Shown here: positions 704 to 36,253 of the stretch, piece by piece | Layout: each line of letters starts with the position of its first letter | Position numbering within the stretch: position 1 is the first letter of the stretch | Sequence record: SRR20825019_282 | Length of the DNA: 38,685 bases | Strand: one strand, 5' to 3' | Notes under the pieces: generated by a model | Told to the model about the DNA's origin: nothing | Seen by the model: the letters and a program-made list of their open reading frames with translations, nothing else | The model's database searches: none | Translations under genes and position numbers: made by a program

Positions 704-745
704 TTGACAGAAATCAATTAGGTCCGGTTTCAGTTTGGATAACGT
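704..745 (+). promoter_or_regulatory. FNR/FixK-type box with class II promoter
   Basis: TTGAC-AGAA-ATCAA at 704-717 (consensus TTGAT-N4-ATCAA) and -10-like TAACGT at 740-745. This puts the box centre near -41.5 from a predicted TSS at about 752. Confidence 0.7.
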
Positions 746-766
746 ATCGGGAGAAAGGAATATCCC

Positions 767-1234
767 GTGAGGCGGTTCCAACATTTTCTTCGTATGCTTT
801 TGATCGGCGCGTTCATTATAGCGCCGATTGGGACGCGTGCGGCTGAAAATGACGCCGAAGTCATGACACAAGTAACCTGCCTGGATACATGGCAAGACGC
901 ATGGAGCATGATCTCTACGCAGGAAAAGTCAGCCTCTGAGGTCTTTTGTGACCATTTTATGGGAGCAAAAGATATTTTTGACAGTGGTGGTAAAACCTCA
1001 ATCCTTCATGTCGTTCCGCCATTTGTGATCGTCGCTATGACATTTGACTTTCCGTCCCCTCCGTCCGTAAAGACGGCTATTCCACGCCAGTATGTGCCAT
1101 ATTCTCTCCATCCCGAAGTGGCCCCACACCCCCCAAAGTATCTAGATTCAGCGGAAGCACACCCCGGTCTGGAACTCCTTGAACCCACCCGTTTTATCCG
1201 GGGTGTGTCCGCAAGCTACGCATTCACAATCTGA
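767..1234 (+). CDS. Secreted leader-type protein with late PEVAPHPPK motif (CutF/CruR-like uORF candidate)
   Basis: GTG start with AAGGA SD, signal-peptide-like N-terminus, Cys and CDH residues, HPPK at aa 121-124, first gene before the porin. Confidence 0.55.
   Translation: MRRFQHFLRMLLIGAFIIAPIGTRAAENDAEVMTQVTCLDTWQDAWSMISTQEKSASEVFCDHFMGAKDIFDSGGKTSILHVVPPFVIVAMTFDFPSPPSVKTAIPRQYVPYSLHPEVAPHPPKYLDSAEAHPGLELLEPTRFIRGVSASYAFTI
1151..1212 (+). promoter_or_regulatory. GC-rich RNA hairpin with repeat copy 2 (1172-1188) in its loop
   Basis: CACACCCCGG (1158-1167) pairs with CCGGGGTGTG (1198-1207), extended by GCGGA/TCCGC. Confidence 0.7.
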
Positions 1235-1260
1235 ACAATGTTCTTTTAGGGAGACTTGCT

Positions 1261-2592
1261 ATGAGGGCAATCTCACGCGGAGGCTTGGTTGTCTGCCTGC
1301 TATGCACGACAGCGCTGAGCCTTGGGGTACCGGCATACGCCGATGAAACACCCCAAACGAAGCTTCTAGAGCGGCTAAACGCCTTGGAAGCCGAAGTGAA
1401 ACAGCTGAAAGCCAAACTGACTGAAACCAGTCAAAGGGCCGAGCAGACAGACAAACGTGCTGAACGCGCGGAAAAACAGGCGAAAAAAGCTGTCGAAGTG
1501 GCTGACCCTGTCCGCCCCAATGCGTGGCATCTGGCAGGTTATGCCGATGTTGGCATTGAATTTAGTGATGGTGAGAATTCCGACACTTTCACAAGTGGAA
1601 AATTCAATCCTGCTTTTCACTTCCAGTATAAGGACCTTATCCTTTTTGAATCGGAATTTGAGGTCTCAACCAATAGCAATGGCGAGACTGACATGGTGCT
1701 AGAATATAGTCAGCTCGACTTTCTGCTGCATGACAATGCTGTGCTGGTTGCGGGAAAGTTCCTAAGCCCGGTTGGCCAGTTTCAAGAAAGATTGCACCCC
1801 AGCTGGATTAACCGGTCGGTCAATGCACCTGCGGGCTTCGGCCACGGTGGCATTCAGCCAATCAGCGAGGTGGGGCTGATGCTGCGTGGTGGTGTGCCGG
1901 TCGGCGAGCGCATGTTCACTTATTCGGTCGCGGTCGGGAATGGCCCTCGGGCTGGACATGGCGGTGTCGAAGTAGAGGGGTTTGGTCGCGATGACAATAG
2001 CAATAAAGCAATCAGTGGACGGCTGGCTTTCTTCCCATTTGACGATTTAGAAATTGGGGGATCGTTGCTTACTGCAAAGGTCGCACCTGAAGCAGAAGAA
2101 GGCGGTGATGATCACGATGAGGAACCTGTTGTCGACGATCATGATGAAGCTGATGAGCTATTCGAGGATCAGCCGCAGGGTGATTATAACCTATGGGGCT
2201 TTGATGCGGCCTACACAGGCGGCAACTGGGATATCCGCGCCGAATATCTGAATGCAGACCTCAAGAACTTCGGTGAAGCCGACGAAGACCATGGGGAACC
2301 AGAGCCTTTATCTTGGAAAGCTTGGTACGCACAAGCAGCATATCGATTGTCCGATATTTCAGATTCCCCTCTTATTCAACGACTGGAGCCGGTCGTGCGA
2401 TACGGCCAGTTTAAGGTCGCTGGTGATCATGAGCTTGAGGAAGAGACCAATGAGAAACGCTTCAATGTTGGCCTTAACTATTGGTTTTCACCTTCTGTCG
2501 TCGTGAAAACCGGCCTGGAGTTCCGCAATTATGAAGCAGAAGAGCGGGACGACGACACACGTCTGCAGTTCCAGTTGTCATACGGCTTCTAA
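1261..2592 (+). CDS. Outer-membrane beta-barrel porin with N-terminal coiled coil and acidic/His-rich loops
   Basis: Signal peptide, coiled coil (LLERLNALEAEVKQLKAKL), amphipathic strands, C-terminal QLSYGF BAM-type signal, loops EEGGDDHDEEPVVDDHDE and EADEDHGE. Confidence 0.85.
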   Translation: MRAISRGGLVVCLLCTTALSLGVPAYADETPQTKLLERLNALEAEVKQLKAKLTETSQRAEQTDKRAERAEKQAKKAVEVADPVRPNAWHLAGYADVGIEFSDGENSDTFTSGKFNPAFHFQYKDLILFESEFEVSTNSNGETDMVLEYSQLDFLLHDNAVLVAGKFLSPVGQFQERLHPSWINRSVNAPAGFGHGGIQPISEVGLMLRGGVPVGERMFTYSVAVGNGPRAGHGGVEVEGFGRDDNSNKAISGRLAFFPFDDLEIGGSLLTAKVAPEAEEGGDDHDEEPVVDDHDEADELFEDQPQGDYNLWGFDAAYTGGNWDIRAEYLNADLKNFGEADEDHGEPEPLSWKAWYAQAAYRLSDISDSPLIQRLEPVVRYGQFKVAGDHELEEETNEKRFNVGLNYWFSPSVVVKTGLEFRNYEAEERDDDTRLQFQLSYGF

Positions 2593-2610
2593 GGAAGAGG
2601 AGATATTCGA

Positions 2611-2904
2611 ATGTTGAAGAAAAATGAACTACTTCCGGTTGTCTTGTTCGCGGCTCTTGCGTCAGCGGTTGGCGTGGGAGCGGTTTTCGCGGATACATCG
2701 CCAGCGAAACCCGATCCTATGCAATTTGCTCGCGGTGCCAAGGCGTGGGCAGCCAACTGCGCTCGCTGTCACAATATGAAAAGCGCACAGGACAACTCCG
2801 ATGAAGAATGGCATGTGGATGTTACCCACATGCGGGTCCGGGCGAATATTCCTGGAGATGTTGCTAGGGATATCAAAGCCTTCCTTCAGGCCAGCAACAA
2901 GTAA
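2611..2904 (+). CDS. Small periplasmic monohaem cytochrome c
   Basis: Signal peptide, CARCH haem motif, distal HM candidate ligand, GAGGAG SD. Confidence 0.88.
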   Translation: MLKKNELLPVVLFAALASAVGVGAVFADTSPAKPDPMQFARGAKAWAANCARCHNMKSAQDNSDEEWHVDVTHMRVRANIPGDVARDIKAFLQASNK

Positions 2905-2914
2905 GGAGTGAAAG

Positions 2915-3253
2915 ATGAAAAGACAATACGTGATATCGCTGATTGCCATTTCGGCTTTCTCTGTTGCTGCGCAGGCCGCACCGCAAGACTTGGCCAATGG
3001 TAAAGAGAAATACGAAGAGACCTGTATCGCCTGCCATGGCGAGAATGGAAAGCCAACCATTCCTGGGTTGCCGGATTTTACATCGCGCACGGGACCTCTA
3101 AAAAAGGGTAACAGTGCGCTTTTCAAAAGTGTGATGGAAGGTGTTGATCGTCCGGGCGCGGACATGGCTATGCCCCCTCTAGGCGGCAATCCGGATCTGA
3201 CCGAGGACGATGTTCGTGACATCCTTTCCTACATGCGAAAGACCTTTCAGTAG
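2915..3253 (+). CDS. Class I (c5/c555-like) monohaem cytochrome c
   Basis: Signal peptide (AQA), CIACH, distal MAMPP Met ligand, AAGGAG SD. Confidence 0.9.
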   Translation: MKRQYVISLIAISAFSVAAQAAPQDLANGKEKYEETCIACHGENGKPTIPGLPDFTSRTGPLKKGNSALFKSVMEGVDRPGADMAMPPLGGNPDLTEDDVRDILSYMRKTFQ

Positions 3254-3267
3254 CAAAGGCCAATGAA

Positions 3268-3295
3268 AAATGCCCGCCTTATAGGGCGGGCATTT
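3268..3295. terminator. Bidirectional intrinsic terminator
   Basis: AAATGCCCGCC-ttatag-GGCGGGCATTT between convergent operons. Confidence 0.85.
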
Positions 3296-3322: not shown

Positions 3323-3673
3323 TCAGTGCATCATCGTTTTCGTGACCCTAAAGATTCCATCTTCGCCACGCGCCAGGGCCATCATGACTTCCTGTCCTGG
3401 ATCCAGCGAGGCTATATCGATGTCGTCAGCTACTTTCATATCCATGGTCATGGCTGGCCAATGAAGTTTTTTGATAGGGCCGTGACTGACATTGAGCGTC
3501 CTTTCTGCGATATTCACGCTATTGACCTTGGCATGGACCATAACCTCCTCCATATCGCCATGCGGGGCCTGGTGGCTTTTATGCTTGTGATCATCCTCGC
3601 TGGCGTGGGCTACCAGCGAACTCAATCCAATAATAGTGAGGGCCATTAAAGGCGCTTTTAATATCTTTCTCAT
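3323..3673 (-). CDS. cusF: CusF-family periplasmic Cu(I)/Ag(I) chaperone
   Basis: Signal peptide, His-rich N-terminus, HGPIKKLHWPAMTM with the H/W/M/M site. Confidence 0.88.
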   Translation of the reverse strand: MRKILKAPLMALTIIGLSSLVAHASEDDHKHKSHQAPHGDMEEVMVHAKVNSVNIAERTLNVSHGPIKKLHWPAMTMDMKVADDIDIASLDPGQEVMMALARGEDGIFRVTKTMMH

Positions 3674-3700
3674 GACAACTCCTTTGACACTGACTTGCTA

Positions 3701-4777
3701 TTATTTTTGATCAGAAATCGGGCGGGAGGACCAATGGGCGTGTACCACTTTCCATCCGTCAGGCCCTTCAGAGATGCCTAGCGTCTCGATGCTGTTGAAG
3801 CGGTGTTGCTGGCCTTTATTTTCAATGGTGAGAATAGAGGACGTTGTTACAATTGCGAGATCTTCCCCACCGATGACGTTTTGACTTATGACCTGCCGGT
3901 CAGCGGACTTCAACATCGGTAGTTCGGGTTTCAAGTGGTGTTCCAGATAGCCCTTGAGCGACGCTTCTTTTTTGCCGTTCTCGAATACGGTGGCGTCGGG
4001 TGCAAAGCTGCTGGCCACCCTGTCAAAGTCCCCACTGAATAAGGCTTGCTGGAACAGTGTTACGAAGCCAAGAGCGGACGTTTCCCGCGACGTTTGGGTG
4101 TCGTGTTGATGCACGTCAGCCTCGTCGCTATGCATTTCTGTGTCTGCCATCTGGGCGGGATTGTCGCCCGCGTAGCCGCCGTCCCCATGGCTATGGCCGA
4201 CATCCTTATCTTCCTGCACGGCTTCGAGACCTTTATCATGTGAATGACCACTATCGTGATGATCTTCATCTTCGGTGCTTTCCTGGCCTTCGTGGTCGTG
4301 TGACGCGTTGCCGCCATGATCGTGACCTTCACCACTTGTGTCAGGCAGGCGCATGACGCCCAAGCCGTGGCGGTATACAAGCTCTGCCCCCAAATAGCCG
4401 GTCACGCCTACAAGACTTGTGAGCGCCAGACTGGCCGCGATGATAGCGCTTGAGATAGCCTTCGACTTGTAGACCCATACCGCAACCAAGATTATCGCGA
4501 CTGCCGTCCCTAGCGCCCAGGCCCGATGGACCTTCATCACCTTGTGCGCAATATCGTCATGGACGACACTGTTGAAGGCCTGTATGCCAGCCAACACAGT
4601 TAAGACAGTGATGGTTGCGCCCAGCCACAGGGTCCATTTCCCGGCAGTTTCGAATATCGTGACATGCTTCTTCTGTACGAGTTTCGACAAAACAAGAAAC
4701 AGTGCCGAGCTTACGGTCAAGCCCACCGTGAAATGGACCAGCAACGGGTGCCAATTGGGAATAATTAGATCAGTCAT
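3701..4777 (-). CDS. DUF2231-like membrane domain, His-rich linker and NTF2/SnoaL-like domain fusion
   Basis: N-terminal HPLLVHF with 4 TM helices and GYLGAELVYRHG, a His/Asp-rich linker, and a C-terminal WKVVHAHWSSR. Confidence 0.8.
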   Translation of the reverse strand: MTDLIIPNWHPLLVHFTVGLTVSSALFLVLSKLVQKKHVTIFETAGKWTLWLGATITVLTVLAGIQAFNSVVHDDIAHKVMKVHRAWALGTAVAIILVAVWVYKSKAISSAIIAASLALTSLVGVTGYLGAELVYRHGLGVMRLPDTSGEGHDHGGNASHDHEGQESTEDEDHHDSGHSHDKGLEAVQEDKDVGHSHGDGGYAGDNPAQMADTEMHSDEADVHQHDTQTSRETSALGFVTLFQQALFSGDFDRVASSFAPDATVFENGKKEASLKGYLEHHLKPELPMLKSADRQVISQNVIGGEDLAIVTTSSILTIENKGQQHRFNSIETLGISEGPDGWKVVHAHWSSRPISDQK

Positions 4778-7700
4778 TTTCGCCTCCCTGTACTGAGTTG
4801 GATGTGATGGATGCCTGTTTGGATAGCTGTTTCACTTCACGCCCCTTCCACAGGAGATACATGGCAGGGATTACCAGAAGCGTGAGGATGGTGGCGCTGA
4901 CCATGCCGCCCACCATCGGGGCCGCAATCCGGCGCATAACTTCTGACCCGGTGCCGGAGCCGAGCATGATGGGCAACAGACCCGCGATGATGACAGCTAC
5001 GGTCATCATGATCGGTCGAACCCGCATAAGGGCACCCTGGACAACTGCGTTTGTCAAATCTGCAACGACCAGTGGCCGCCCTTCGTTTTCGGCGTTGGAT
5101 TTGGCCTTTTCCCAAGCCTGATTGAGATAAACGATCATCAAGACGCCGATCTCTACCGCGACACCTGCAAGGGCGATAAAGCCCACGCCCACGGCGACGG
5201 ACAGGTTATAGCCCAAAAGATACAACAGCCAGATGCCACCGACGAGTGAAAGCGGCAGTGTGCCCATGATGATCAGAACCGACGTCAGGTTCTGGAAATT
5301 AATGAACAATAGAAGCAGGATGATGATCAGTGTGACGGGGACCACCACACTCAGTTTCGCCTTCGCCCGTTCCATATATTCATATTGGCCGGACCATGCG
5401 ATCGAATAGCCCGCGGGCAGATCGACCTTTTCCCGGACCACCTTTTGCGCTTCTTTCACATAAGAACCGATATCGACACCAGCGATATCCACGTAAATCC
5501 AGCCGTTCAGACGGGCATTTTCGGACCGAATGACGCCAGGGCCACCAGAGACACTGATCGTGGCAACCTGCCCAAGCGGTATGTGTTCTCCCATCGGAGT
5601 AATGATCGGTAGGGCGCGCAAGCGGTCAAGTGAGTCCCGGTATTCTCGTGGATAGCGCAAGTTGATGGGGTAGCGCTCCAGCCCTTCAATGCTTTCCGTC
5701 ACCGACATGCCGCCAATAGCGGTGCGGATCACTTCCTGCACATCCGCGATATTGAGGCCATAGCGTGCGGCTTTCACGCGGTCGATGTCAGCGTTGACAT
5801 AGCGTCCGCCAGTGACACGTTCAGCATAGACGGATGCGGTGCCAGGCACATTTTTCATCACCGCTTCAATCCGTTGCCCAACTTCGCTAATCACATTCAG
5901 GTCAGGTCCTGCTACCTTGATCCCCACGGGGGTTTTGATGCCTGTTGCCAGCATGTCGATCCGGTTCTTGATCGGCATAATCCATACATTCGTGAGGCTT
6001 GGGACTTGAACGAGGCTATTCAGTTCGGCCTTCAGCTTTTCAGTCGTCATCCCTTCGCGCCACTCGCTTCTGGGCTTCAGTTTGATGGTGGTCTCAATCA
6101 TTGTGAGCGGCGCCGGGTCGGTGGCTGTTTCAGCGCGTCCCGCCTTGCCATACACTGCCTCCACTTCAGGGACCGACTTAATCAGTTTATTTGTCTGCTG
6201 GACAATTTGCGCGACCTTCCCTGCTGAAACAGCAGGGAAAGCGCTGGGCATATACAGAAGATCGCCTTCATCGAGGTCCGGCATAAACTCGCCACCGATA
6301 TGGCTGAGCGGATACCAAGCGCTGATCATGATGACGAGTGTTACCATCACCATACTTTTCGGGAACTTCAACACCATACCGATAAAAGGGCGATAGGCAG
6401 CGATCAGCCCCCGGTTGATGGGGTTTTTGTGTTCGGGCAAGATCTTGCCGCGAATGAAATACCCCATCAGAACAGGTACCAAGGTGACCGATAAGGCGGC
6501 CGCTGCGGCCATGGCATAGGTCTTGGTGAAAGCCAGTGGATGGAAAAGCCGACCCTCTTGTGCTTCGAGCGCGAAGATCGGCACGAAACTAAAAGTGATG
6601 ATCAGGAGCGAGAAAAAGAGTGGAGGCCCAACCTCTACCGCGGTTTTGGTGACAACCTCCCAGCGGTTCGCGCTGGTTACTTCTTCTTCCTCCATATGCT
6701 TGTGGAAGTTTTCGATCATCACAATGGTGGCGTCCACCATGGCGCCGATGGCGATTGCGATGCCCCCGAGCGACATGATGTTTGCGTTGATACCTTGAGC
6801 GTTCATCACAATAATCGCCGCAAGAATGCCAACAGGGAGACTGAGCACGACAACAAGCGCAGAGCGCAAGTGGAAAAGGAATACAGCGCACACAAGCGCG
6901 ACGACTATGAATTCTTCGATGAGCTTTTCATTCAGCGTGTCGACAGCCCGCTCAATCAGCGACGAACGGTCGTAGGTTTCTACAACCTCCACACCTTCTG
7001 GCAGGCTGTCCTTGAGGAGCTCCAGTTTCTCTTTTACACGGTCAATGGTGGCCAGCGCGTTTTCGCCCCAGCGCATGATGATCACGCCACCTACGGCTTC
7101 ACCCTCACCATTTAGCTCTCCAATGCCGCGACGGAGTTCTGGCCCCATGCGAATGTCCGCTACTTCCCTAAGTAGAATTGGGGTGCCATTGGCGGTCTGA
7201 CCTACAGGAATGGTCTCCAGGTCCTTGATGTTGCCAATATAACCCGAGGCACGGACCATATATTCGGCTTCCGCCATCTCGATCACGCGGCCACCAGTTT
7301 CCTGATTGCCGCGCTTGATGGCCTGTTTGACCATGTGAAGCGGGATATCATAGGCACGCAGGCGGTTCGGGTTTACCACTACCTGATATTGCTTGACCAT
7401 GCCGCCGATGGTGGCAACCTCTGAGACACCTGCCACCGTCTGCAACTCATATTTGAGGAACCAGTCCTGAATGCTCCTGAGTTCGGCAAGGTCATGTTGT
7501 CCAGTGCGATCCACCAGGGCATATTGGTACACCCAGCCAACACCCGTTGCGTCCGGGCCAAGGGCGGTTCTCGTGCCTTCAGGCAATGTGGGAGCAACCT
7601 GGCTGAGATATTCAAGAACGCGTGACCGTGCCCAATAGAGGTCGGTACCATCTTCAAAAATAATATAGACATAACTGTCGTTGAAGAAACTGTAGCCGCG

Positions 7701-7946
7701 CACGGTTACCGCACCAGGGACAGACAGCATGGCAGTGGTCAGCGGATAGGTGACCTGGTCTTCAATCACCTGTGGGGCCTGGCCCGCATAGGTGGTTTTG
7801 ACGATTACCTGTACGTCAGAAAGGTCGGGGATGGCGTCAAGTGGCGTCTTCGACAGCGAATAGGCACCCCAACCGGTGAAAAGAAGTGTCAGGATCACAA
7901 CCAGAAAACGGTTCTGAACCGACCAGCGAATAAGATTGGCTATCAT
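4770..7946 (-). CDS. cusA: CusA/SilA-type Cu(I)/Ag(I) HME-RND efflux transporter
   Basis: 1058 aa RND, DAIPDLSDVQVIV, Met triad contexts LLYMP, PLTMIET and RIDML. Confidence 0.96.
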   Translation of the reverse strand: MIANLIRWSVQNRFLVVILTLLFTGWGAYSLSKTPLDAIPDLSDVQVIVKTTYAGQAPQVIEDQVTYPLTTAMLSVPGAVTVRGYSFFNDSYVYIIFEDGTDLYWARSRVLEYLSQVAPTLPEGTRTALGPDATGVGWVYQYALVDRTGQHDLAELRSIQDWFLKYELQTVAGVSEVATIGGMVKQYQVVVNPNRLRAYDIPLHMVKQAIKRGNQETGGRVIEMAEAEYMVRASGYIGNIKDLETIPVGQTANGTPILLREVADIRMGPELRRGIGELNGEGEAVGGVIIMRWGENALATIDRVKEKLELLKDSLPEGVEVVETYDRSSLIERAVDTLNEKLIEEFIVVALVCAVFLFHLRSALVVVLSLPVGILAAIIVMNAQGINANIMSLGGIAIAIGAMVDATIVMIENFHKHMEEEEVTSANRWEVVTKTAVEVGPPLFFSLLIITFSFVPIFALEAQEGRLFHPLAFTKTYAMAAAAALSVTLVPVLMGYFIRGKILPEHKNPINRGLIAAYRPFIGMVLKFPKSMVMVTLVIMISAWYPLSHIGGEFMPDLDEGDLLYMPSAFPAVSAGKVAQIVQQTNKLIKSVPEVEAVYGKAGRAETATDPAPLTMIETTIKLKPRSEWREGMTTEKLKAELNSLVQVPSLTNVWIMPIKNRIDMLATGIKTPVGIKVAGPDLNVISEVGQRIEAVMKNVPGTASVYAERVTGGRYVNADIDRVKAARYGLNIADVQEVIRTAIGGMSVTESIEGLERYPINLRYPREYRDSLDRLRALPIITPMGEHIPLGQVATISVSGGPGVIRSENARLNGWIYVDIAGVDIGSYVKEAQKVVREKVDLPAGYSIAWSGQYEYMERAKAKLSVVVPVTLIIILLLLFINFQNLTSVLIIMGTLPLSLVGGIWLLYLLGYNLSVAVGVGFIALAGVAVEIGVLMIVYLNQAWEKAKSNAENEGRPLVVADLTNAVVQGALMRVRPIMMTVAVIIAGLLPIMLGSGTGSEVMRRIAAPMVGGMVSATILTLLVIPAMYLLWKGREVKQLSKQASITSNSVQGGEND

Positions 7947-7964
7947 GGGTTCAAACTCCGTCTT

Positions 7965-9464
7965 CTACATTTTCATGGCTGAGACGATGATGAAGGACCC
8001 ATCCTCGCCTTGTTGAAGTTGGAAGTGCATCCGGTCGACTGGCTCGAAAATGGAAAGATCCACCTCTGGCGCGACCGTGAAATCCATGGTCATCTCAGGC
8101 CAGCCCAATGACTGGATCGGATCATGCGTCAGATTGACGGTGCTGCCGGTAATCGAATTGACCGTCCCCATGCCATGATGGATTTCCGCTTCGTCAGGTG
8201 AAGCCGTAGGTTCGCCATCCTGCATGACCATGTCAGCTATGGGAGCATCGGCGTCGAGCATGCGCAGGAAGGCACTGTTGATGCTGGCTTCACTATCGAT
8301 CAGGAATTGGCCTGATGTGACAACTTTTTCGCCTGCGCTAAGGCCTCCCTTGATGGCGACCCGGTCGCCGCTTTCATGGCCAGCGACAACTTCCGCCGGG
8401 CGGAAACGGCCATCCCCCAGTGCCAGAATAACCCGGTCGGTCTTGCCTGTACGAATGAGGGCTTCGCGCGGAATGGACAATACATCGGCCTCAGGCGCTG
8501 CCATGATGCTGATCTCGCCATACATGTTGGGCTTCAGGCGTCCATCCTTGTTTGGGAATGCGAGACGCACCTGCACGGTCCGGCTTTTTGGGTCAACCAA
8601 AGGGTAGACATAGTCAACCGTTCCGTCCCAGGTTTCACCCGGCAGGAAGGGGAGTTGCATGATTGTCTTTTGGCCCTCAGCGACCCAGTCGCTTTGGCCT
8701 TCAAACACATCAACCATAACCCACACGGTTGAAAGGTCAGCGAGTGAGAAGACGGTTTTGGAGGGCTGGATATACATCCCTTCGCCAATGCTCAAGTCCA
8801 CAATGACCCCGTCCTGAGGGGCGCGAACCTCAACAAGCTGTTTGACAGTGCCACTTTTTCGAATGTCCGAGATTTGGCCGTCTGTCATGCCCAGGGCCCG
8901 CAGGCGTTCCTGCGAGGCCCGGGTCAGGCCCTCCTGTTTCAGGCGAATTGCCTGCAGGAATTCCGTCTGGGCATTCACCAGTTCAGGTGAATAAAGTTCG
9001 AAAATCAGTTCGCCTTTCCTGACTTCCTCACCTACGGCCTTCCGGTACAGTTTTTCAACCCAGCCAGCCGTCCGAACATGGACATGGGCGGTCTTGTCTT
9101 CGTCCATGTCGATATAGCCCACGGTTTCGATCTCTCGGGTCATATCGGCAACGGTGGCCGCCGCTGTCCGGACGCCCAGATTGTTGACAACGGCAGCACT
9201 GATTTTCAGCGCGTTTGCGTCACCCCCGCCACCGGCTTCATCGGCATAGACTGGGATCAGGTCCATCCCCATCGGTGACTTACCTGGTTGGTCGCGGCGA
9301 TAGTTGGCGTCCATCGGCGCAACCCAATACAGGATTTCGCGCTCGCCGGATTTGGCAGAACCAGCAGTTTCACTAGCGCCTGGCGCTGTTAGTTGACTGC
9401 CCGCATAGCCAAGGGTAATCCCTACCGCAAGCGTGGCCGTGGCGATCATTAATGTCTTACGCAT
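7965..9464 (-). CDS. cusB: CusB-type periplasmic adaptor with C-terminal CusF-like domain
   Basis: YWVAPMD...GKSPMGMDL metal-binding motif, MFP core, C-terminal HDPIQSLGWPEMTMDF. Confidence 0.93.
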   Translation of the reverse strand: MRKTLMIATATLAVGITLGYAGSQLTAPGASETAGSAKSGEREILYWVAPMDANYRRDQPGKSPMGMDLIPVYADEAGGGGDANALKISAAVVNNLGVRTAAATVADMTREIETVGYIDMDEDKTAHVHVRTAGWVEKLYRKAVGEEVRKGELIFELYSPELVNAQTEFLQAIRLKQEGLTRASQERLRALGMTDGQISDIRKSGTVKQLVEVRAPQDGVIVDLSIGEGMYIQPSKTVFSLADLSTVWVMVDVFEGQSDWVAEGQKTIMQLPFLPGETWDGTVDYVYPLVDPKSRTVQVRLAFPNKDGRLKPNMYGEISIMAAPEADVLSIPREALIRTGKTDRVILALGDGRFRPAEVVAGHESGDRVAIKGGLSAGEKVVTSGQFLIDSEASINSAFLRMLDADAPIADMVMQDGEPTASPDEAEIHHGMGTVNSITGSTVNLTHDPIQSLGWPEMTMDFTVAPEVDLSIFEPVDRMHFQLQQGEDGSFIIVSAMKM

Positions 9465-10770
9465 CGTCTTCCCCTTCGAGGAATAATAGTTGAGCCTGGG
9501 CCTTCATGCGTTCGCTCTGGAGCTTGAGCAGACTAAGCTCCGCATCCAGTTCAGCGAGCCGGGCCCGAACAAGTTCTGCAAAGTCGGTGATCCCATTTTG
9601 GTAGGATGTCAGGGACGCTTCGGTCGTTTCCTTTGCTCGCTTAATGACCACGGATTGGAACAAGCCAACGCGTTTCTGCAGCCGTTGCCAATCGGCATAG
9701 CTGCTGTCGAGCATCTTCTTCAGGTCTAGAAGGACGGTGTCATGCCCCAACTGGGCGGCCTGCCGGTCTTTCTTCGCAGCAGACAGGCGTCTGTCTTGGC
9801 GTTTTTGGGTAAACATGGGCACATCCATCACGACACCAACGGTGGCCAGATCGGTCCTATCAGCCCCGCGTGCGCCATAGCCCACGTTCACTGACCAGCC
9901 AGGCTTATATTGCTCGCGGGCCACGCCAACGTCTTTGTCTGCCACGGTTACATTGGCCTCCTGGACACGGGCCGCAGGGTGTTGGCTGAGGCGTTCCGTC
10001 AGTGGTGCGATATCGGAAGGATGACGCATTGATGGTAGTGACGCGGGAACCTGTCTGGTGGCCGCGACTTGCCCTATGCGGCGGGCAAGTCGGGCTCGCA
10101 CCATTGCATCTTGGCGGTCTATTTCGACCAGCCGGTCATCCAGCAGGCTTAACTCCAGCTCCGCACGGAACACGTCCTGGCTGGTTTCCCGACCCGTCGC
10201 ATAGATGGCTTCAATGACTTCGATCAGTTCGGCGATGGCCGTTCTGCTGGCCAGGACCTTTTCCCGGGCAGCAGTCCAATAATAGAGATCAAGCCAGTTT
10301 TGTCGCGTGTCGAGCACAACCTCCCGTCGGCGTAGGTCCAGCCTGGCTTGTTCCAATCCTGCCAATGCCTGCCGTTTCTGGCGATTGAACTTGAGCGTAT
10401 CGCCTTTTGGAAAACTTTGGCTCAGTCCCAACTGAAGCTGGGTCATCGGTTCTTGGGTATAGCTAAAGCTATTTGTTGGCCAATTGGCGAATGTGGCCCG
10501 GAACTTGGGATCGGGCAACTGCGAGTCAGCCACGGCGCGGTCCTGTTGGGCGGCAGCGCGAACGCCGGGCTCCAGAAGATATGGGTCGGCAGAATTGAGC
10601 GCCAGCCGAACGGCCTCTTTCATCGTAAGGGAGGGTTGGTGCTTATCTTGTTGTATTGCAACTGGTGAAGTAGCAGGCGCAACTTCTATGGGCGTGGCAT
10701 TTTCCGATGCCAAGCCCGGAACGGCCATCATAATAGCCGCGATAGCGACCAAGGGTGTCTGTCGGTACAT
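9457..10770 (-). CDS. cusC: TolC-family outer-membrane factor (CusC-equivalent)
   Basis: Signal peptide, OEP repeats (LPDPKF...QEPMTQ), overlaps the cusB start. Confidence 0.88.
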   Translation of the reverse strand: MYRQTPLVAIAAIMMAVPGLASENATPIEVAPATSPVAIQQDKHQPSLTMKEAVRLALNSADPYLLEPGVRAAAQQDRAVADSQLPDPKFRATFANWPTNSFSYTQEPMTQLQLGLSQSFPKGDTLKFNRQKRQALAGLEQARLDLRRREVVLDTRQNWLDLYYWTAAREKVLASRTAIAELIEVIEAIYATGRETSQDVFRAELELSLLDDRLVEIDRQDAMVRARLARRIGQVAATRQVPASLPSMRHPSDIAPLTERLSQHPAARVQEANVTVADKDVGVAREQYKPGWSVNVGYGARGADRTDLATVGVVMDVPMFTQKRQDRRLSAAKKDRQAAQLGHDTVLLDLKKMLDSSYADWQRLQKRVGLFQSVVIKRAKETTEASLTSYQNGITDFAELVRARLAELDAELSLLKLQSERMKAQAQLLFLEGEDDA

Positions 10771-11464: not shown

Positions 11465-11509
11465 ATTGACGACGGTCAATCCGCAGTTGCGTTTCATGCC
11501 ATCTATAGT
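11465..11509 (+). promoter_or_regulatory. FNR/FixK-type box with class II promoter
   Basis: Palindrome ATTGAC-GACG-GTCAAT at 11465-11480 and -10 TATAGT at 11504-11509. Confidence 0.7.
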
Positions 11510-11584
11510 GTGAGGGGCAGTTTTGAGTCCACACGAACATATGGCTGCCGCCCCATTGTGGCGCAACAGAAAAGGAGATATCCA

Positions 11585-12946
11585 ATGATGAAACTGGCAT
11601 TCATGGGTGCGGCGGGAACCGTTACAGGGTCTAAATATCTCCTGTCAGGAGCGGACTCCAAAATCATGGTGGACTGTGGGCTGTTTCAGGGGCTCAAGGA
11701 CTTGCGGCTAAAGAACTGGGCACCGCTTGAGGTCGCTCCCTCAACTATTGATGCAGTTTTGCTGACTCACGCGCACCTCGACCACTCTGGCCATCTACCG
11801 TTGTTGGCGAGAGAGGGCTTCTTTGGTCCTATCTATTGCACCGGTGCCACGGCCGATCTTTGTAGCATCCTGCTGCGTGATAGTGCCTACCTGCAGGAAA
11901 AGGATGCCGAATTCGCGAATCGTTACGGCTTTTCTAAGCACAAACCGGCGCGCCCACTATACACCAGTGAAGATGCTGAAAAGGTGATTGGACTCTTGCG
12001 GTCACAGAAATTCGACCATCCGATGCATGTGCAGAACGGTATTGAGGCAACTTTTCGGATAGCGGGGCATATTCTGGGAGCGTCCACCATCTCGTTGCAG
12101 ATGGAGGGCCGCACAATTGTCTTCTCTGGAGATCTTGGGCGCTTGGCAGACCCGGTGATGCTTCGCCCGGCACAGGTTGAGAGTGCAGATTATCTGATTG
12201 TGGAATCCACTTATGGAAACCGAAAACATGAAGATCTTGACGTTGAAGCAAGGCTTGCCGACATAATATCCAGCACGGCGGCCCGCGGCGGCTCGGTGAT
12301 TGTACCGGCTTTTGCCGTCGGGCGAACCCAGTCGCTTCTCTATTATGTGTCAAGGCTAAAGAAGGCCGGGCGAATACCCGACTTGCCGGTGTTCCTTGAT
12401 AGCCCGATGGCTATCAATGCCAGCAAGATTTATTGTGACAATCGCGAAGTACACCGGCTTTCTGATACGGAATGTAAGGCAGCTTGCTCTGTTGCCAAAT
12501 ATACCCGTAAAGTCGAGGAGTCGAAGAAATTAACCTATCTTGCGATGCCTTCGATCATTATTTCTGCAAGCGGTATGGCGACAGGCGGTCGGATTTTGCA
12601 CCATCTCAAGCATTATGTTGCGGACCGGCAGAACACGATCCTGTTCACTGGGTTTCAGGCTGCGGGCACTCGCGGCCGCGCAATGGTCGAGGGCGCACGC
12701 CAGATCAAGATCCATGGTTCCTACATTCCGGTAAATGCGCATGTGGAAAACCTTGATGCTTTGTCGGCGCACGCTGACTGCGACGAAATACTTGAATGGC
12801 TTTCTGGGTTACAGCACTCGCCCAAAACCACCTTTGTCACCCACGGTGAACCTGAGGCGTCGGCTGCACTCGCTGCCCGCATAAGGGACGAACTTGGCTG
12901 GCACTGTGAAATCCCGGAATTGGGGCAGGAGGTTGAGCTGCCATGA
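11585..12946 (+). CDS. MBL-fold beta-CASP ribonuclease (YSH1/TTHA0252-like)
   Basis: THAHLDH, GHILG, SGDLG, ESTYG, PAFAVGR, SAHAD, THGE. Start moved to ATG 11585 after AAGGAG. Confidence 0.92.
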   Translation: MMKLAFMGAAGTVTGSKYLLSGADSKIMVDCGLFQGLKDLRLKNWAPLEVAPSTIDAVLLTHAHLDHSGHLPLLAREGFFGPIYCTGATADLCSILLRDSAYLQEKDAEFANRYGFSKHKPARPLYTSEDAEKVIGLLRSQKFDHPMHVQNGIEATFRIAGHILGASTISLQMEGRTIVFSGDLGRLADPVMLRPAQVESADYLIVESTYGNRKHEDLDVEARLADIISSTAARGGSVIVPAFAVGRTQSLLYYVSRLKKAGRIPDLPVFLDSPMAINASKIYCDNREVHRLSDTECKAACSVAKYTRKVEESKKLTYLAMPSIIISASGMATGGRILHHLKHYVADRQNTILFTGFQAAGTRGRAMVEGARQIKIHGSYIPVNAHVENLDALSAHADCDEILEWLSGLQHSPKTTFVTHGEPEASAALAARIRDELGWHCEIPELGQEVELP

Positions 12947-14469
12947 CCATGCCACGGGAAGCAGGGGCATGCCATCTGGGTATCCGGCTGAAGCGGCTCG
13001 GCATCAACAGTCGCTCTGATCATATCATCTATATGCGTGACGACTGCGCAGTTTGTCGGGCAGAAGGCTTCAACGCGCAGGCGCGTGTCCGCGTGGACAT
13101 GGGTGACAGGTTCATCATCGCGACCATCCATCACGTCAACTCCGATCTGTTGACCGACGGGGAGGCAAGCCTCTCTGAGCGAGCATGGGAGTTTCTGGAT
13201 GCAAGCGAAGGAGATTGTATATCACTCTCTCACCCCGCACTTCTGGAATCGCTCCGCAAAGTTCGCGGCAAGATCTATGGTCGGGCCTTCGAGGGAGACG
13301 ACCTTTCAACCATTGTTCGGGACCTAACCGAGGGCCGTTATTCCGATGTGGAAACGGCAGCCTTCATCACTGCCTGCTCGGCCCAGGATTTGGATGGAGC
13401 AGAACGCATTGCGCTGACCAAGGCCATGGTTGACGTGGGCGACAGGCTTGAATGGTCGCGCACGCCAGTAGTCGATAAGCATTGTATCGGCGGGTTGCCT
13501 GGCAACCGGACCACGCCGATTATTGTTTCCATCGTTGCTGCGAACGGCCTTCTGATGCCCAAAACATCGTCGAGAGCCATCACCTCGCCTGCTGGCACGG
13601 CGGACACGATGGAGGTGTTGACCAAGGTTGACCTTGACCTTGCGGCCATCCGGCGGGTGGTGGCAAGTGAAGGCGCCTGCCTTGCCTGGGGTGGGGCGGT
13701 GCGCCTCAGCCCGGCTGATGATCTGCTGATCCGCATTGAGCGCGCGCTTGATATCGATAGCGACGGCCAACTTGTTGCCTCGGTTCTGTCGAAAAAGATA
13801 GCCGCCGGGGCCACCCACCTTGTCCTTGATATCCCTTATGGGCCGACGGCCAAGGTGCGGTCCCTTGAGGCTGCAGAGAAACTGAAGGCTAGCCTTCTGG
13901 ATGTTGCGGCGGCTTTCGGCCTGAAAGCGCACGCGGTCTTAAGTGATGGGACAGAGCCTGTAGGACGCGGTATCGGCCCGGCCCTTGAGGCGCGGGATGT
14001 GCTGTCTGTCCTCAGGTGCGAGCCGGACGCGCCGCAAGACCTGCGGGACCGCGCCATCACCCTTGCCGGGTGCCTGCTTGAAATGGCGGGCTGTGTTGAT
14101 GCCGGGGCAGGTGCTGCCCGCGCCACTGCCACCTTGGAAGACGGATGCGCCTTCAAGAAATTTGAAGATATCTGTGCTGCCCAAGGCGGCTTGGCCAAGC
14201 CGCCTGTCGCGCCGCATCGGTGGGCGGTTGAGGCGACAGAAAACGGACGGGTGGCGGGTATCGACAACCGCCGCATCGCCCAAGTAGCAAAGCTGCTAGG
14301 CGCACCCGATGCTAAAGCTGCAGGGGTACTGATGATGGCGCGTGTGGGCGATCGGGTAGAAGTTGGCGCGAAACTATATGAGATGCACGCCGAAACCACG
14401 GGCGAGATGGCATACGCGCAGGCCTATGTGGATCAGAACCAAGACATTATTGCCGTGGAGGTCAGCTAA
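12943..14469 (+). CDS. AMP phosphorylase-like (archaeal-type thymidine phosphorylase family) protein
   Basis: Extra N-terminal domain with CAVC, DKHCIGGLPGNRTT, KTSSRAITSPAGTAD, PVGRGIGPALEA. ATGA overlap with the upstream gene. Confidence 0.9.
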   Translation: MTMPREAGACHLGIRLKRLGINSRSDHIIYMRDDCAVCRAEGFNAQARVRVDMGDRFIIATIHHVNSDLLTDGEASLSERAWEFLDASEGDCISLSHPALLESLRKVRGKIYGRAFEGDDLSTIVRDLTEGRYSDVETAAFITACSAQDLDGAERIALTKAMVDVGDRLEWSRTPVVDKHCIGGLPGNRTTPIIVSIVAANGLLMPKTSSRAITSPAGTADTMEVLTKVDLDLAAIRRVVASEGACLAWGGAVRLSPADDLLIRIERALDIDSDGQLVASVLSKKIAAGATHLVLDIPYGPTAKVRSLEAAEKLKASLLDVAAAFGLKAHAVLSDGTEPVGRGIGPALEARDVLSVLRCEPDAPQDLRDRAITLAGCLLEMAGCVDAGAGAARATATLEDGCAFKKFEDICAAQGGLAKPPVAPHRWAVEATENGRVAGIDNRRIAQVAKLLGAPDAKAAGVLMMARVGDRVEVGAKLYEMHAETTGEMAYAQAYVDQNQDIIAVEVS

Positions 14470-15371
14470 TGGGATTTATCTATTATGCGCTGCCGGGGGC
14501 GGAAGAATTGGCGGAAAATCTGGCGCGCCGGGCAGATGCCAAGGTTGGTAGGCTAGAAGTGCGCCATTTCCCCGATGGCGAAATATATGTGCGGGCCCAT
14601 ACGCTATGTGCAGGCCACAGAGCGGTGCTGGTTGCTGATCTTGCGCGACCTGACCATACGGTTCTAGCACTGATTTTCGCGGCTGATCTCCTGCATGACC
14701 TTGGCGCTGAAGATATTGGCCTTGTTGCGCCCTATCTGGCTTATATGCGCCAGGATAAACGGTTCCGTGAGGGCGAGGCGGTCACCTCTGCCTCCTTCGC
14801 CAAACTGGTCAGCACCGCGCTGGACTGGATGGTAACGGTCGATCCGCATTTGCACAGGCGCAAGAGCTTGTCAGAAATTTATTCTATTCCAGCCAGTGCG
14901 CTTCATGCGGCACCTGTTATCGGTGAATGGATGGCGCACAATGTGCCAGACGCCCTTCTTGTGGGGCCGGATGGAGAAAGCGAACAGTGGGTGAAGGCTG
15001 TGGCGGAGGTCGCTGACATGCCTTTCATTGTGCTCAGAAAGGTCAGGCATGGAGACCGCGATGTGGAGGTCAGCGTGCCGCAGGCCGACCAGTGGCACGA
15101 TAGAACGCCGGTGTTGGTGGACGATATCATTTCAACAGCCCGGACGATGATCGAAACCGTCTTTCATCTAAAGAATGCAGGCATGAAGCCTCCCATCTGT
15201 ATTGGTGTGCATGCCATCTTTGCTGGCGATGGGTATGAGGCACTGAAGAATAGGGGGGTGAGGATCGTCACCTGCAACGCTGTGCCGCATCCCACAAACG
15301 CAATCGACCTCACCGGTCTGATCGCCAGCGGGATACAGACGCTTCTCAGCACCAAACAGGGGGTATTGTGA
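14469..15371 (+). CDS. prs: Ribose-phosphate pyrophosphokinase-like protein
   Basis: FPDGE, PYLAYMRQDKRF, VDPHLH, GPD, PRPP motif variant VLVDDIISTARTM. Confidence 0.88.
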   Translation: MGFIYYALPGAEELAENLARRADAKVGRLEVRHFPDGEIYVRAHTLCAGHRAVLVADLARPDHTVLALIFAADLLHDLGAEDIGLVAPYLAYMRQDKRFREGEAVTSASFAKLVSTALDWMVTVDPHLHRRKSLSEIYSIPASALHAAPVIGEWMAHNVPDALLVGPDGESEQWVKAVAEVADMPFIVLRKVRHGDRDVEVSVPQADQWHDRTPVLVDDIISTARTMIETVFHLKNAGMKPPICIGVHAIFAGDGYEALKNRGVRIVTCNAVPHPTNAIDLTGLIASGIQTLLSTKQGVL

Positions 15372-16408
15372 ATCAGACACTCCGATATATCGCAATAGGC
15401 GCGATTGTGGCTGCCGTTGCCGCTGTAGCCTGGTTTTGGCAGCAGAATGACGGCGTCTGTGCGGCAGGTGGTGCGCCAGCGATCTGTGTTCCCGAACAGA
15501 TCATTCTCTATGGCAACGTGGATGTGCGGCAGGTCAATCTGGGTTTCAAGGTATCCGGTCGGGTAGATCAGGTGCTGGTCGAAGAAGGGGATCGGGTGAC
15601 GCAAGGCCAGAAGTTGGCAACCCTTGAAAAGCCCGATTTTGCGGACGACGTCGCGCTTGCTCAAGCACAGTCCGATGGCAGTGCCGCCGCGCTCAAGCAG
15701 CTTGAAAACGGCGCGCGGCCCCAAGAAATTGCACAGGCGCTAGCGCTTGTGGAAGAACGGCAGGCGACGGTTGAGAATGCCCGTCGAACCGTGCAGCGCC
15801 GCTCTGAGTTGGCCGAGGATGGTTTTACTGCCCATCAGGCGCATGAGGATGCAGAGGCAGCGCTCCTTGAAGCGGAAGCACGGCTTCGGTCTGCGATCGA
15901 GACTCTGAAACTCGTCAAGGCCGGGCCTCGGCAGGAGGAAATCGCGCGAGCTCGCGCCGCTCATACTGCGGATGCAGCCTCGCTGTCGCTCGCAAAACGT
16001 CGACTTAAAGATGCAGAGCTGTATGCACCAAACGAAGGCACCGTACTCACCCGCGTACGGGAACCCGGTGCGATCGTTCAGGCGGGGGAACCAATCCTGA
16101 ACCTGAGCCTCAATTCGCCGGTCTGGGTTCGCACCTATGTGGAAGAACCTCAGCTTGGGTTCATCACACCCGGCATGACAGCAACCGTGCAGACGGATTC
16201 CGGGGGCGCGTATGAAGGCCAGGTTGGGTTCATATCGCCCGTCGCGGAATTTACACCCAAAACCGTGGAGACCAGGGAACTGCGCACGCGCCTTGTCTAT
16301 CGTGTTCGGGTGATCGTGGACGGTGATGACGATGGATTGCGGCAGGGTATGCCAGTGACTGTGGTCCTTGTGCCGAAAGGGGCTGTGGCCGGTGCAGCCG
16401 CTGATTGA
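15368..16408 (+). CDS. ybhG: HlyD-family periplasmic adaptor (YbhG-like)
   Basis: N-terminal anchor, LYGNVDVRQVNLGF, AEFTPKTVETRELRT. Confidence 0.88.
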   Translation: MNQTLRYIAIGAIVAAVAAVAWFWQQNDGVCAAGGAPAICVPEQIILYGNVDVRQVNLGFKVSGRVDQVLVEEGDRVTQGQKLATLEKPDFADDVALAQAQSDGSAAALKQLENGARPQEIAQALALVEERQATVENARRTVQRRSELAEDGFTAHQAHEDAEAALLEAEARLRSAIETLKLVKAGPRQEEIARARAAHTADAASLSLAKRRLKDAELYAPNEGTVLTRVREPGAIVQAGEPILNLSLNSPVWVRTYVEEPQLGFITPGMTATVQTDSGGAYEGQVGFISPVAEFTPKTVETRELRTRLVYRVRVIVDGDDDGLRQGMPVTVVLVPKGAVAGAAAD

Positions 16409-18107: not shown

Positions 18108-19225
18108 AGTTCAACATGGGGCGCATATTCGGGCTGGCACGTAAGGAAAGCAGGCAGATTTTAAGAGACCCGAGCAGTCTGATCATTGCCGTCTTTCTAC
18201 CACTTACCTTGCTGTTCCTGTTTGGGTACGGCGTCACGTTCGATCCGCGCAACTATGATATTGGCCTAGTGGTGGAGCAGCCCACGCCCGAGACCGGCAG
18301 CTTTACGGCCTCGCTGGTGACGTCCAGTTACTTCCGTGTGGCAACCGGTCGCGATGTGCGGGACCTGGAAAGCAAGCTAGTCTCGGGTGAGCTGAAGGGC
18401 ATCGTCGTGCTGCGCGCTGACTTTTCTCGCCGCGCCTTTCGCCGGGATACGGCTCCGATCCAGGTTCTGGTGGACGGGACGGACGCCAATACCGCGGAAT
18501 TGATCCGTGGCTATGTGCAGGCTGTGTGGGCGTCGTGGCTTGGCCAGGAGCTTTCTAGCAACGGGATCGACTACTCGCCGCCTGTAGGCCTTGTGTCCCG
18601 CCTGTGGTACAACCCGGAAGCCTCCAGCAAGAATTATCTGGTGCCTGGGTCCGTGGCGATCATCATGACGATGATTGGCGCGTTGTTGACCGCCCTTGTG
18701 GTGGCGCGGGAATGGGAACGCGGTACGATGGAAGCGTTATTGACCACCCCGATCGGCCGGTGGGAACTGCTTCTTGGGAAACTGGCGCCTTATTTCCTGT
18801 TGGGCATGGTATCCATGGTCCTATCGGTTGGGGTGGCTATCTGGCTTTTTGCTGTGCCGTTCCGGGGATCCTTCTGGGTGTTGGGGCTGACGTCAGCCGT
18901 GTTCATGTGGACATCGCTTGGTATGGGGCTGCTGATCTCGACCATCTCGCGAAGCCAACTGATCGCCGCCCAGATTTCCATTCTGTCAGCCTTTCTTCCT
19001 GCCTTTTACTTTTCGAACTTTGTTTTTGAGGTCGACAGCATGCCAGCCCCTCTTCAGGGGATCAGCTATATTGTACCGGCCAAATATTTTGTCTCGACGC
19101 TTCAAACGCTGTTCCTGGCGGGGGATGCGGGTGACGTGATCGTGACGGACACGCTGGTCCTGGCGCTGATCGGCTTGGTGTTTTTCATGGTGGCCGTCAA
19201 GAAAACCAGAACGGATTTGGAGTAG
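18104..19225 (+). CDS. ybhS: ABC-2 permease (YbhS-like)
   Basis: KESRQILRDPSS, AREWERGTMEALL, multiple TM helices. Confidence 0.9.
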   Translation: MKFNMGRIFGLARKESRQILRDPSSLIIAVFLPLTLLFLFGYGVTFDPRNYDIGLVVEQPTPETGSFTASLVTSSYFRVATGRDVRDLESKLVSGELKGIVVLRADFSRRAFRRDTAPIQVLVDGTDANTAELIRGYVQAVWASWLGQELSSNGIDYSPPVGLVSRLWYNPEASSKNYLVPGSVAIIMTMIGALLTALVVAREWERGTMEALLTTPIGRWELLLGKLAPYFLLGMVSMVLSVGVAIWLFAVPFRGSFWVLGLTSAVFMWTSLGMGLLISTISRSQLIAAQISILSAFLPAFYFSNFVFEVDSMPAPLQGISYIVPAKYFVSTLQTLFLAGDAGDVIVTDTLVLALIGLVFFMVAVKKTRTDLE

Positions 19226-19231
19226 GCAACC

Positions 19232-35650: not shown

Positions 35651-35678
35651 TGTTGGGCTACCAGTTGTTCGAAAAAAT

Positions 35679-35720
35679 GCAATTGAGAATTAATATGAAA
35701 TATGACAGGGCAATGTACAA
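35679..35720 (-). promoter_or_regulatory. Sigma70 promoter overlapped by a Fur-like box
   Basis: TTGTAC-17 bp-CATATT on the minus strand. GCAATTGAGAATTAATATG (35679-35697) matches GATAATGATAATCATTATC at 12 of 19 positions. Confidence 0.55.
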
Positions 35721-35722
35721 CC

Positions 35723-36202: not shown

Positions 36203-36253
36203 CCTTTGGAGTTTCCTGTGCTCGGCTTTCATGGTGGGACAGGCCCAAAAGGT

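Follow-up and report, generated by a model that had tools for sequence, protein, structure and literature searches.

A conserved porin–cytochrome unit of proteobacterial copper islands with a possible role in low-oxygen metal redox chemistry

A stretch of 38,685 nucleotides (nt) from sequence record SRR20825019_282, here called the window, carries near one end (704–3295) a unit consisting of the genes for a small secreted protein, an outer-membrane porin and two monohaem c-type cytochromes, designated cyt1 and cyt2. An initial annotation of this DNA described the unit as an FNR-controlled porin–cytochrome operon within a copper island, and every element that it listed for 704–3295 was found in its place. 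The features of the unit are as follows, with protein lengths in amino acids (aa).

704–717, + strand: FNR/FixK-type box TTGACAGAAATCAA, an exact match to the consensus.
740–745, + strand: candidate −10 hexamer TAACGT, read from the sequence, 22 nt after the box.
767–1234, + strand: orf155, encoding a small secreted Cys/His protein of 155 aa; in the Kordiimonas clade it heads the unit.
1151–1212, + strand: intercistronic hairpin holding the second copy of CCTTGAACCC (1177–1186), from the fold of 1140–1262.
1261–2592, + strand: outer-membrane porin of 443 aa, with a signal peptide, a predicted coiled coil and a 16-strand barrel.
2611–2904, + strand: cyt1, monohaem c-type cytochrome of 97 aa; CARCH at 2758–2772.
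2915–3253, + strand: cyt2, class I monohaem cytochrome c of 112 aa; CIACH at 3023–3037 and a MAMPP loop.
3268–3295, assigned to neither strand: GC-rich hairpin of 12 base pairs (bp) between the convergent genes cyt2 and cusF; terminator candidate for both strands.

The gaps between porin and cyt1 and between cyt1 and cyt2 are 18 nt and 10 nt respectively, and a Shine-Dalgarno-like sequence precedes each gene. The hairpin that ends the unit, where a terminator had been proposed, is strong (−21.3 kcal/mol, z −4.1; 0 of 200 shuffled sequences equally stable), and a simple terminator scan did not list it because its T-run is short. The fold of 1140–1262, which includes the intercistronic hairpin, has an energy of −36.9 kcal/mol (z −2.3).

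Relatives of the porin found in a scan of species genomes numbered 236, and the best 80 of these 236 loci were examined in detail. Their open reading frames (ORFs) were clustered and the clusters then named by Pfam; full flanks are present in 46 of the 80, and the metal-gene counts given below cover ORFs within 6 kb of the unit. The loci are spread over the Alpha- and Gammaproteobacteria, their sources including Kordiimonas, Emcibacter, Hyphomonas, Robiginitomaculum, Maricaulis, Parvibaculum, Haliea, Cellvibrionaceae, Thiotrichales and Shewanella, among others. The nearest genome, G001, shares 100% of the sampled words of the window and was used for questions concerning the regulon and the flanks.

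Synteny across these loci rules out a chance adjacency of porin and cytochrome genes, and bears out the proposal that they form a real conserved unit. The gene for cyt1 adjoins that for the porin in 79 of the 80 loci, the exception (L056) stopping at the end of its contig, and cyt2 then follows in 74; cyt1 is found without cyt2 in L048, L052 and L065, where flanking DNA is present. In 28 of the 80 loci cyt1 and cyt2 are joined in a single open frame of about 190–290 aa with one signal peptide, from which it follows that the window encodes a split dihaem cytochrome. Of 301 alphaproteobacterial genomes sampled, 2, including G001, contain a match to the cyt1 profile. The module is an accessory unit that is defined and widespread, yet rare.

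The functional link between porin and cytochromes that the initial annotation had drawn is backed by natural fusions. A plasmid of Legionella anisa (NZ_CP082853; locus L106, 5705–9891) encodes a cytochrome–porin fusion of 758 aa, in which a coiled coil separates two cyt2-like domains from a third, after which comes a barrel of the porin family. The barrel is 28.6% identical to residues 91–443 of the window porin (E 7e-31), and the three cytochrome domains are 37–44% identical to the window cyt2. The fusion gene is followed by genes for a dihaem protein like cyt1–cyt2 and for a 415-aa cytochrome with a weak match to an MtrC/MtrF domain. Fused porin–cyt2 forms of 532–758 aa make up 14 protein clusters, in a Legionella-type clade. 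These fusions suggest that the cytochromes of the window likewise act at the porin.

Both cytochromes have the features of class I c-type cytochromes, namely a signal peptide, a single CXXCH and a distal Met/His ligand. While cyt2 is an ordinary member of the class, matching PF13442 and PF00034 above cut-off, cyt1, with about 70 mature residues, belongs to no curated family: its Pfam matches are weak (20.6 and 18.4 bits, below cut-off), and an atlas search returned merely "cytochrome c, class I". The AlphaFold2 model of cyt1 has a predicted local distance difference test (pLDDT) score of 81.5, and its best structure match, SorB (2blf_B), is non-significant at E 0.3. The residues of cyt1 that are invariant are G42, A43, W46, C50, C53, H54, N55, W67, H73, M74, R75, F91 and L92. 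Among 1.84 billion proteins its profile found 617 cluster representatives at E<=1e-10, the best 150 of which are 54–290 aa long. For the fused cyt1–cyt2 relatives the best sequence matches in the PDB are the haem domains of CcoP, a subunit of cbb3 oxidase.

The porin ends in YGF. Its AlphaFold2 model, made with 30 homologues (pLDDT 74.5), consists of a helix at residues 31–79 and then about 16 long strands, and a Foldseek search with this model matched OmpU, OmpC, Omp32, OprO and OprP, including entries 4rjw and 2o4v, with E of about 1e-11 to 1e-13. Model and search together give the porin a 16-strand, trimer-type fold, in agreement with the beta-barrel first proposed, and the Asp/Glu/His-rich loops of that proposal can be read directly at residues ~276–306, 336–349, 388–397 and 425–431. 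At the level of sequence the relationship is faint. Comparison of the porin profile with the PDB gave a marginal link to OprO (E 0.005), and the best Pfam family for the window porin is Porin_4 at 23 bits, under the cut-off of 27 bits, no Pfam cut-off being reached; many homologues carry a precomputed PF07396 assignment, and an Alteromonas relative scores 23.8 against a cut-off of 20.9. The most conserved segment of the family is the loop between strands 5 and 6 (residues 169–201), in the position of L3. Among the 76 homologues listed, 75 have a net charge of −4 to −43, which, as a matter of composition only, argues against anion selectivity of the OprP type. The N-terminal helix gave weak matches to alanine-zipper and Lpp-like sequences; on the model, it may form a periplasmic coiled-coil stalk.

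The first gene, orf155, had been taken for a leader ORF, but it encodes no leader peptide: it is the gene of a conserved secreted protein. Its N-terminus resembles a signal peptide, and its homologues in seven Kordiimonas-type loci are proteins of about 130–155 aa with a signal peptide, one conserved Cys and the motif FC(G/D)HF, in which the C-terminal SLHPEVAPHPPK is kept while the middle of the protein varies freely. Searches of Pfam and NCBIfam gave no family for it. It might, as a guess, be a periplasmic metal-binding helper. A DUF2946-like identity for orf155 and similar small Cys/His proteins was rejected, having no Pfam support even at E<=1.

Small secreted proteins with a Cys/Asp/His-rich centre and a C-terminal [FL][HR]PP[KRI] or HPPK, otherwise unrelated-looking, occur in other islands as well. 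They were seen in L059, L060, L070 and L073 (cluster 27), in L014, L015, L020, L023 and L055 (cluster 26), in L067 and L069 (cluster 89), in L016, L049 and L050 (cluster 43), and at 767–1234 of the window. A Pfam scan assigned none of them to a family, even at E<=1.

Evidence for low-oxygen control comes from the box at 704–717, which lies 50 nt before the start codon of the first gene. The pattern TTGAYNNNNRTCAA occurs twice in the window, where 0.25 matches would be expected by chance. The box is kept in all seven Kordiimonas-type loci, L002–L007 among them, at a constant 62–65 nt before the first gene, its TTGA and TCAA ends being fixed and its middle variable. Downstream of it, L004 has TATAAT and L007 TATAGT, each 21 nt after the box (alignment A4). 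Of the class II FNR/FixK promoter originally proposed, the box itself is upheld by this phylogenetic footprint; the class II geometry in the window, with TAACGT 22 nt after the box, is a possible reading of the sequence. More widely, an exact box is present between −700 and +60 of the porin in 17 of 75 loci, a density of 0.319 per kb, compared with 0.018 per kb in the remainder of those loci, although this enrichment (about 18-fold) overstates the number of separate events, related loci being non-independent. In 14 loci the distance from the box to the porin, or to the small gene ahead of it, is 100 nt or less; in L009, L021, L038, L051 and L065 it is the porin itself that the box precedes.

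The genome G001 contains 19 such boxes, compared to 5 for the reversed control pattern. Those in intergenic DNA head a usp gene, a DsbD_2 gene together with a gene for a COX1-family oxidase, ompW beside a P-type ATPase gene, and hemN, which is identified by TIGR00538 above cut-off and adjoins a gene for an FtrB/Fnr-like (Crp/Fnr) regulator. The footprint in seven loci and the presence of the same box before hemN, ompW, usp and the haem-copper oxidase cluster of G001 confirm that the FNR/FixK box is real. Judged from sequence, the unit has the features of an FNR/FixK regulon member: a promoter-proximal box, and in G001 a Crp/Fnr regulator and a recognisable low-O2 regulon. Three loci without metal genes have genes of this kind as neighbours, L031 lying by a Crp/Fnr regulator, L038 by HemN, and L071 adjoining a PAS kinase and a LuxR-type regulator (a FixLJ-like pair) and a Crp/Fnr gene.

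Two other kinds of promoter were considered. A CueR/MerR-type promoter, with a −35/−10 spacing of 19–20 bp and a dyad, was not seen in 608–766, before the window operon. One is present before the porin–dihaem operon of L054 (about 1180–1215), where TTGACC, the 9-bp dyad CCTGTGTCC/GGACACAGG and TAAACT lie downstream of a MerR gene. Sequences of the form GAAC-N15-19-CGT[CA], typical of extracytoplasmic function (ECF) promoters, precede the porin in L004 and L006 by pattern search, and GAACTT-N16-CGTT was seen by eye in L014 and L017; the evidence from these four loci is too weak to propose an ECF-type promoter for the window unit.

The second exact FNR box of the window, TTGACGACGGTCAA at 11466–11479, lies 31 nt before a cluster of genes on one strand (11510–20344) that encode a beta-CASP metallo-hydrolase, a thymidine-phosphorylase-like protein, a protein resembling phosphoribosyl pyrophosphate (PRPP) synthetase, HlyD, an ATP-binding cassette (ABC) ATPase and two ABC-2 permeases. 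L018, L019 and L039 also have genes for a thymidine-phosphorylase-like and a PRPP-synthetase-like protein immediately before the porin, and in L065 this pair stands at a greater distance upstream. Another repeated sequence is a 17-nt element ending in CCTTGAACCC, which occurs at 630–646, by the cueR-like gene, and at 1170–1186, about 80 nt before the porin, and which recurs at the same two positions in L002 (5354, 5917) and L003 (5353, 5908). It could be a promoter or an operator.

On either side, the unit is flanked by copper genes:

206–661, − strand: cueR-like MerR regulator, divergent from the unit; TIGR02044 (CueR) at 123 bits, cut-off 147, with MerR Pfam families.
3323–10770, − strand: cusF, a DUF2231–SnoaL gene, cusA, cusB (with a CusF domain) and cusC, convergent with the unit; assigned by Pfam.

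The orientations are those described at the outset, with the cueR-like gene divergent and cusF–cusCBA convergent. The likely start of the former is the ATG at about 607, giving MDALVK, and a C-x7-C loop is readable in its translation. The remainder of the window is a heavy-metal island, with a YHS/HMBD P1B-ATPase, three more MerR regulators, a cation diffusion facilitator (CDF) transporter, merTPA and a second resistance–nodulation–division (RND) pump.

The neighbourhood survey supports the linkage to metal islands that had been predicted for the homologues. Of the 80 loci, 55 have one or more metal genes near the unit; for those with full flanks the figure is 36 of 46. Cus genes are present in 34 of the 80 (CusA in 30, CusB in 24, CusC in 20), and 20 loci carry a YHS/HMBD P1B-ATPase. 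Also counted were ECF sigma factors (14 loci), MerR regulators (12), Metal_resist (9), DUF411/CopG (6) and cupredoxins (4). In 11 loci the triad of porin, cyt1 and cyt2 stands immediately before cusCBA in the same orientation, and in L041 the order is cusCBA–porin–dihaem, with the module following cusA without a gap.

Some further genes of these islands are also of note. A pseudoazurin-like gene (PF00127; E 1e-15 in L047) lies directly before the porin in three loci from Maricaulis, L047 (5263–5757), L048 (5465–5932) and L052 (5412–5864). The gene between cusF and cusA in the window (3701–4777) joins a DUF2231 membrane domain to a SnoaL-like domain through a His/Asp/Glu-rich linker and overlaps the start of cusA by 8 nt; SnoaL-like genes are present in 12 related loci. 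At 33746–35650 the window encodes a 634-aa fusion of an FTR1 iron permease with cytochrome c, followed by a 169-aa cytochrome c (the pair occupying 33746–36232), and such a fusion is found near the module in L072 too, adjoining CusS/R.

The initial annotation had also made an argument of the absence of a multicopper oxidase. Such an enzyme is indeed missing from the 39 window ORFs scanned with Pfam and NCBIfam, and homologues were found in 3 of the 80 loci. As an argument the absence is weakened, since G001 encodes a multicopper oxidase of 648 aa with a twin-arginine-like N-terminus (C1, 1428055–1429629), approximately 13 kb past the right end of the window (position 38685).

The toxicity of copper is greatest for Cu(I) at low oxygen, where multicopper oxidase, the known periplasmic detoxifier, is without its co-substrate. 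It is tempting to suggest that the products of this unit form a porin-anchored cytochrome assembly that exchanges electrons with copper at low oxygen, a tentative reading to which we would give a probability of roughly 40%. Under this proposal orf155, porin, cyt1 and cyt2 would be co-transcribed as a four-gene operon, in the window organism from an FNR/FixK-dependent promoter, and because of that dependence the unit would be made at low oxygen. The porin would be an outer-membrane protein of the trimer type with an acidic mouth and a periplasmic coiled-coil stalk, and the split dihaem cytochrome would work at or on it, presumably by docking. The unit, carried along as an accessory of Cu(I)-efflux islands, would let the cytochromes exchange electrons with a redox-active metal cation, copper being the likeliest, and this cation may pass through the porin or be held at it or at the periplasmic face. 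The electrons would go to or come from the respiratory chain, cyt2 resembling the haem domains of CcoP. The unit might in this way fill at low O2 the role ascribed, in air, to a multicopper oxidase paired with an outer-membrane protein (PcoA/PcoB). The earlier reading of a low-oxygen metal-redox module has gained comparative support for its low-oxygen control, its linkage to metal islands and its coupling of porin and cytochromes, while copper oxidation, a passage of electrons across the membrane and independence from O2 are its conjectural parts.

A narrower form of this proposal is a haem-based cuprous oxidase system without multicopper oxidase, in which the acidic porin and the docked dihaem pair take electrons, at the outer membrane and in the periplasm, from Cu(I) (or Ag/Cu-related species) and pass them to the high-affinity respiratory chain. 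We consider it doubtful, though a live possibility. If true, haem-based oxidation of Cu(I) would keep copper detoxification going, and even make it energy-yielding, where O2 is too scarce for enzymes of the CueO/PcoA type.

Several observations weigh against an exchange of electrons with copper. No copper-binding motif is conserved across the cytochromes, and the MxM at the axial Met of cyt2, near-invariant in alignment A3, is reduced to one Met in the Legionella domains. An electron path across the membrane appears doubtful, because a folded-in L3 in a 16-strand barrel leaves no room for a cytochrome. With a multicopper oxidase encoded some 13 kb away in G001, there is nothing that needs replacing. 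Of the loci with full flanks, 10 of 46 are without a clustered metal gene, yet L072, one of these, has CusS/R, and the setting of the Legionella anisa fusion on its plasmid is also without metal genes. Lastly, chloride stabilises Cu(I) in seawater, which means that a c-type cytochrome might reduce Cu(II) there and not oxidise Cu(I).

Among other explanations, the one that survives best is that porin and cytochromes are co-regulated but have separate jobs, the former as a cation-selective replacement porin at low O2 or under metal stress, the latter as an extra soluble carrier to cbb3 or another terminal enzyme, with no metal redox chemistry involved. Small soluble cytochromes and the haem domains of CcoP are indeed the solved proteins nearest to cyt2 in sequence, a haem-copper oxidase cluster together with another outer-membrane protein, OmpW, belongs to the FNR regulon of G001, and the pseudoazurin gene directly before the porin in L047, L048 and L052 would also accord with such an arrangement. 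In addition, copper damages the assembly of c-type cytochromes, according to the available part of one report (PMC4600104), so that spare carriers could help. What plain co-regulation leaves unexplained is the adjacency of porin and cyt1, which holds in 79 of 80 loci from two classes, and the covalent joining of porin and cyt2-like domains in 14 protein clusters; on balance, we regard separate jobs as unlikely.

Alternatively, the unit may be a split Fe(II) oxidase resembling Cyc2, in which Fe2+ enters the porin, cyt1 oxidises it and cyt2 relays the electrons, for iron detoxification or energy at low O2, the copper island being incidental. The barrel is of the same type as that of Cyc2 (16-strand and OprO/OprP-like, according to the available part of PMC8406198); Fe(II) resembles Cu(I) in lasting only where O2 is low, a property in keeping with FNR control; and FTR1–cytochrome c fusions are encoded in the window (33746–35650) and in L072. 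This view has to contend with a cyt1 from which the defining motif and spacing of Cyc2 are missing, and with neighbours that are overwhelmingly Cu(I) genes (Cus, YHS/HMBD ATPase, CueR-like, CopG/DUF411, cupredoxin) and not iron genes, and it seems distinctly unlikely. That the unit serves copper supply at low O2, with the porin admitting copper and the cytochromes setting its redox state for the loading of cuproenzymes (cbb3 oxidase, denitrification enzymes), would suit an FNR-type control shared with oxidase genes and the HemN and Crp/Fnr genes that adjoin the module in loci without resistance genes, but is very improbable, as the frequent same-strand cusCBA efflux genes and metal-sensing regulators fit defence better.

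Returning to the porin-anchored exchange of electrons with copper, the module touches on an open question, namely how bacteria other than E. coli cope with copper at low O2 beyond Cus efflux, and it combines in one operon, next to Cus, three themes: a channel in the outer membrane, haem proteins that carry electrons, and control by FNR. Should it act on copper, copper homeostasis would gain a new component, and the Cyc2-type idea, a small porin with a single haem, would reach beyond iron to a second metal. Otherwise it is still a porin–cytochrome family that awaits characterisation, and its naturally split and fused forms make it a good subject for structural work. Full-text literature searches, with subscription-only papers outside their scope, found no description of a porin plus small-cytochrome module in copper islands, which agrees with the first impression that no characterised system has this layout. 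Two papers considered, PMC13707694 and bioRxiv 10.64898/2026.01.22.701106, proved to have no bearing on the module.

The systems nearest to it can nevertheless be compared. MtrAB, PioAB and MtoAB likewise have a porin gene adjoining c-type cytochrome genes and carry out metal redox at the outer membrane; in the MtrAB type a 26-strand barrel sheathes a decahaem protein, as described in the available part of PMC8406198. With about 16 strands and one CXXCH in each cytochrome (monohaem, class I), the window unit is not of the MtrAB type, and a haem wire through the membrane is unlikely. OprO and OprP (PF07396) are related to the porin through the PF07396 assignments of its homologues and the fold matches to 4rjw and 2o4v. 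Differences lie in the marginal sequence similarity (profile against PDB, E 0.005), in the added N-terminal coiled coil, in the strongly acidic character of the window family compared with an Arg/Lys-lined channel, and in its obligate cytochrome neighbour.

PcoA/PcoB (CopA/CopB) also pair a periplasmic redox protein with an outer-membrane barrel in copper islands, and PcoAB has been proposed as a porin–oxidase system (He et al. 2017, PMC5566968, as far as the accessible text goes). The redox partner in the window is haem-based, and would need no O2 at its own site. The barrel belongs to another family, and multicopper oxidase genes are rare beside modules of the window type (3 of 80 loci).

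The closest known architecture is that of Cyc2, an Fe(II) oxidase which, in the accessible part of its description (Keffer et al. 2021, PMC8406198), joins an N-terminal monohaem cytochrome to a porin of 16 strands that is similar in structure to OprO/OprP. An OprO/OprP-like barrel of 16 strands and a small monohaem c-type cytochrome on the periplasmic, N-terminal side are thus common to both, and relatives of the window porin are covalently fused to cytochrome domains as well. In the window, however, the parts are separate genes, and the fused forms are confined to a distant clade and carry domains of the cyt2 type. The same source gives the Cyc2 motif as AXPXFAR[Q/K][T/Y] five residues before CXXCH, with PXL four residues after it, and both window cytochromes are without these elements: cyt1 reads PDPMQFARGAKAWAANCARCHNMKSAQ, with GA after FAR, eight residues to the Cys and no PXL, and FAR is unconserved in its family. 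The window unit also has two haem domains of different types and a predicted coiled-coil stalk on its porin, and its context is copper efflux and FNR control, not iron oxidation. As far as sequence can tell, the unit is not a member of Cyc2, yet it is like a split version of the Cyc2 plan.

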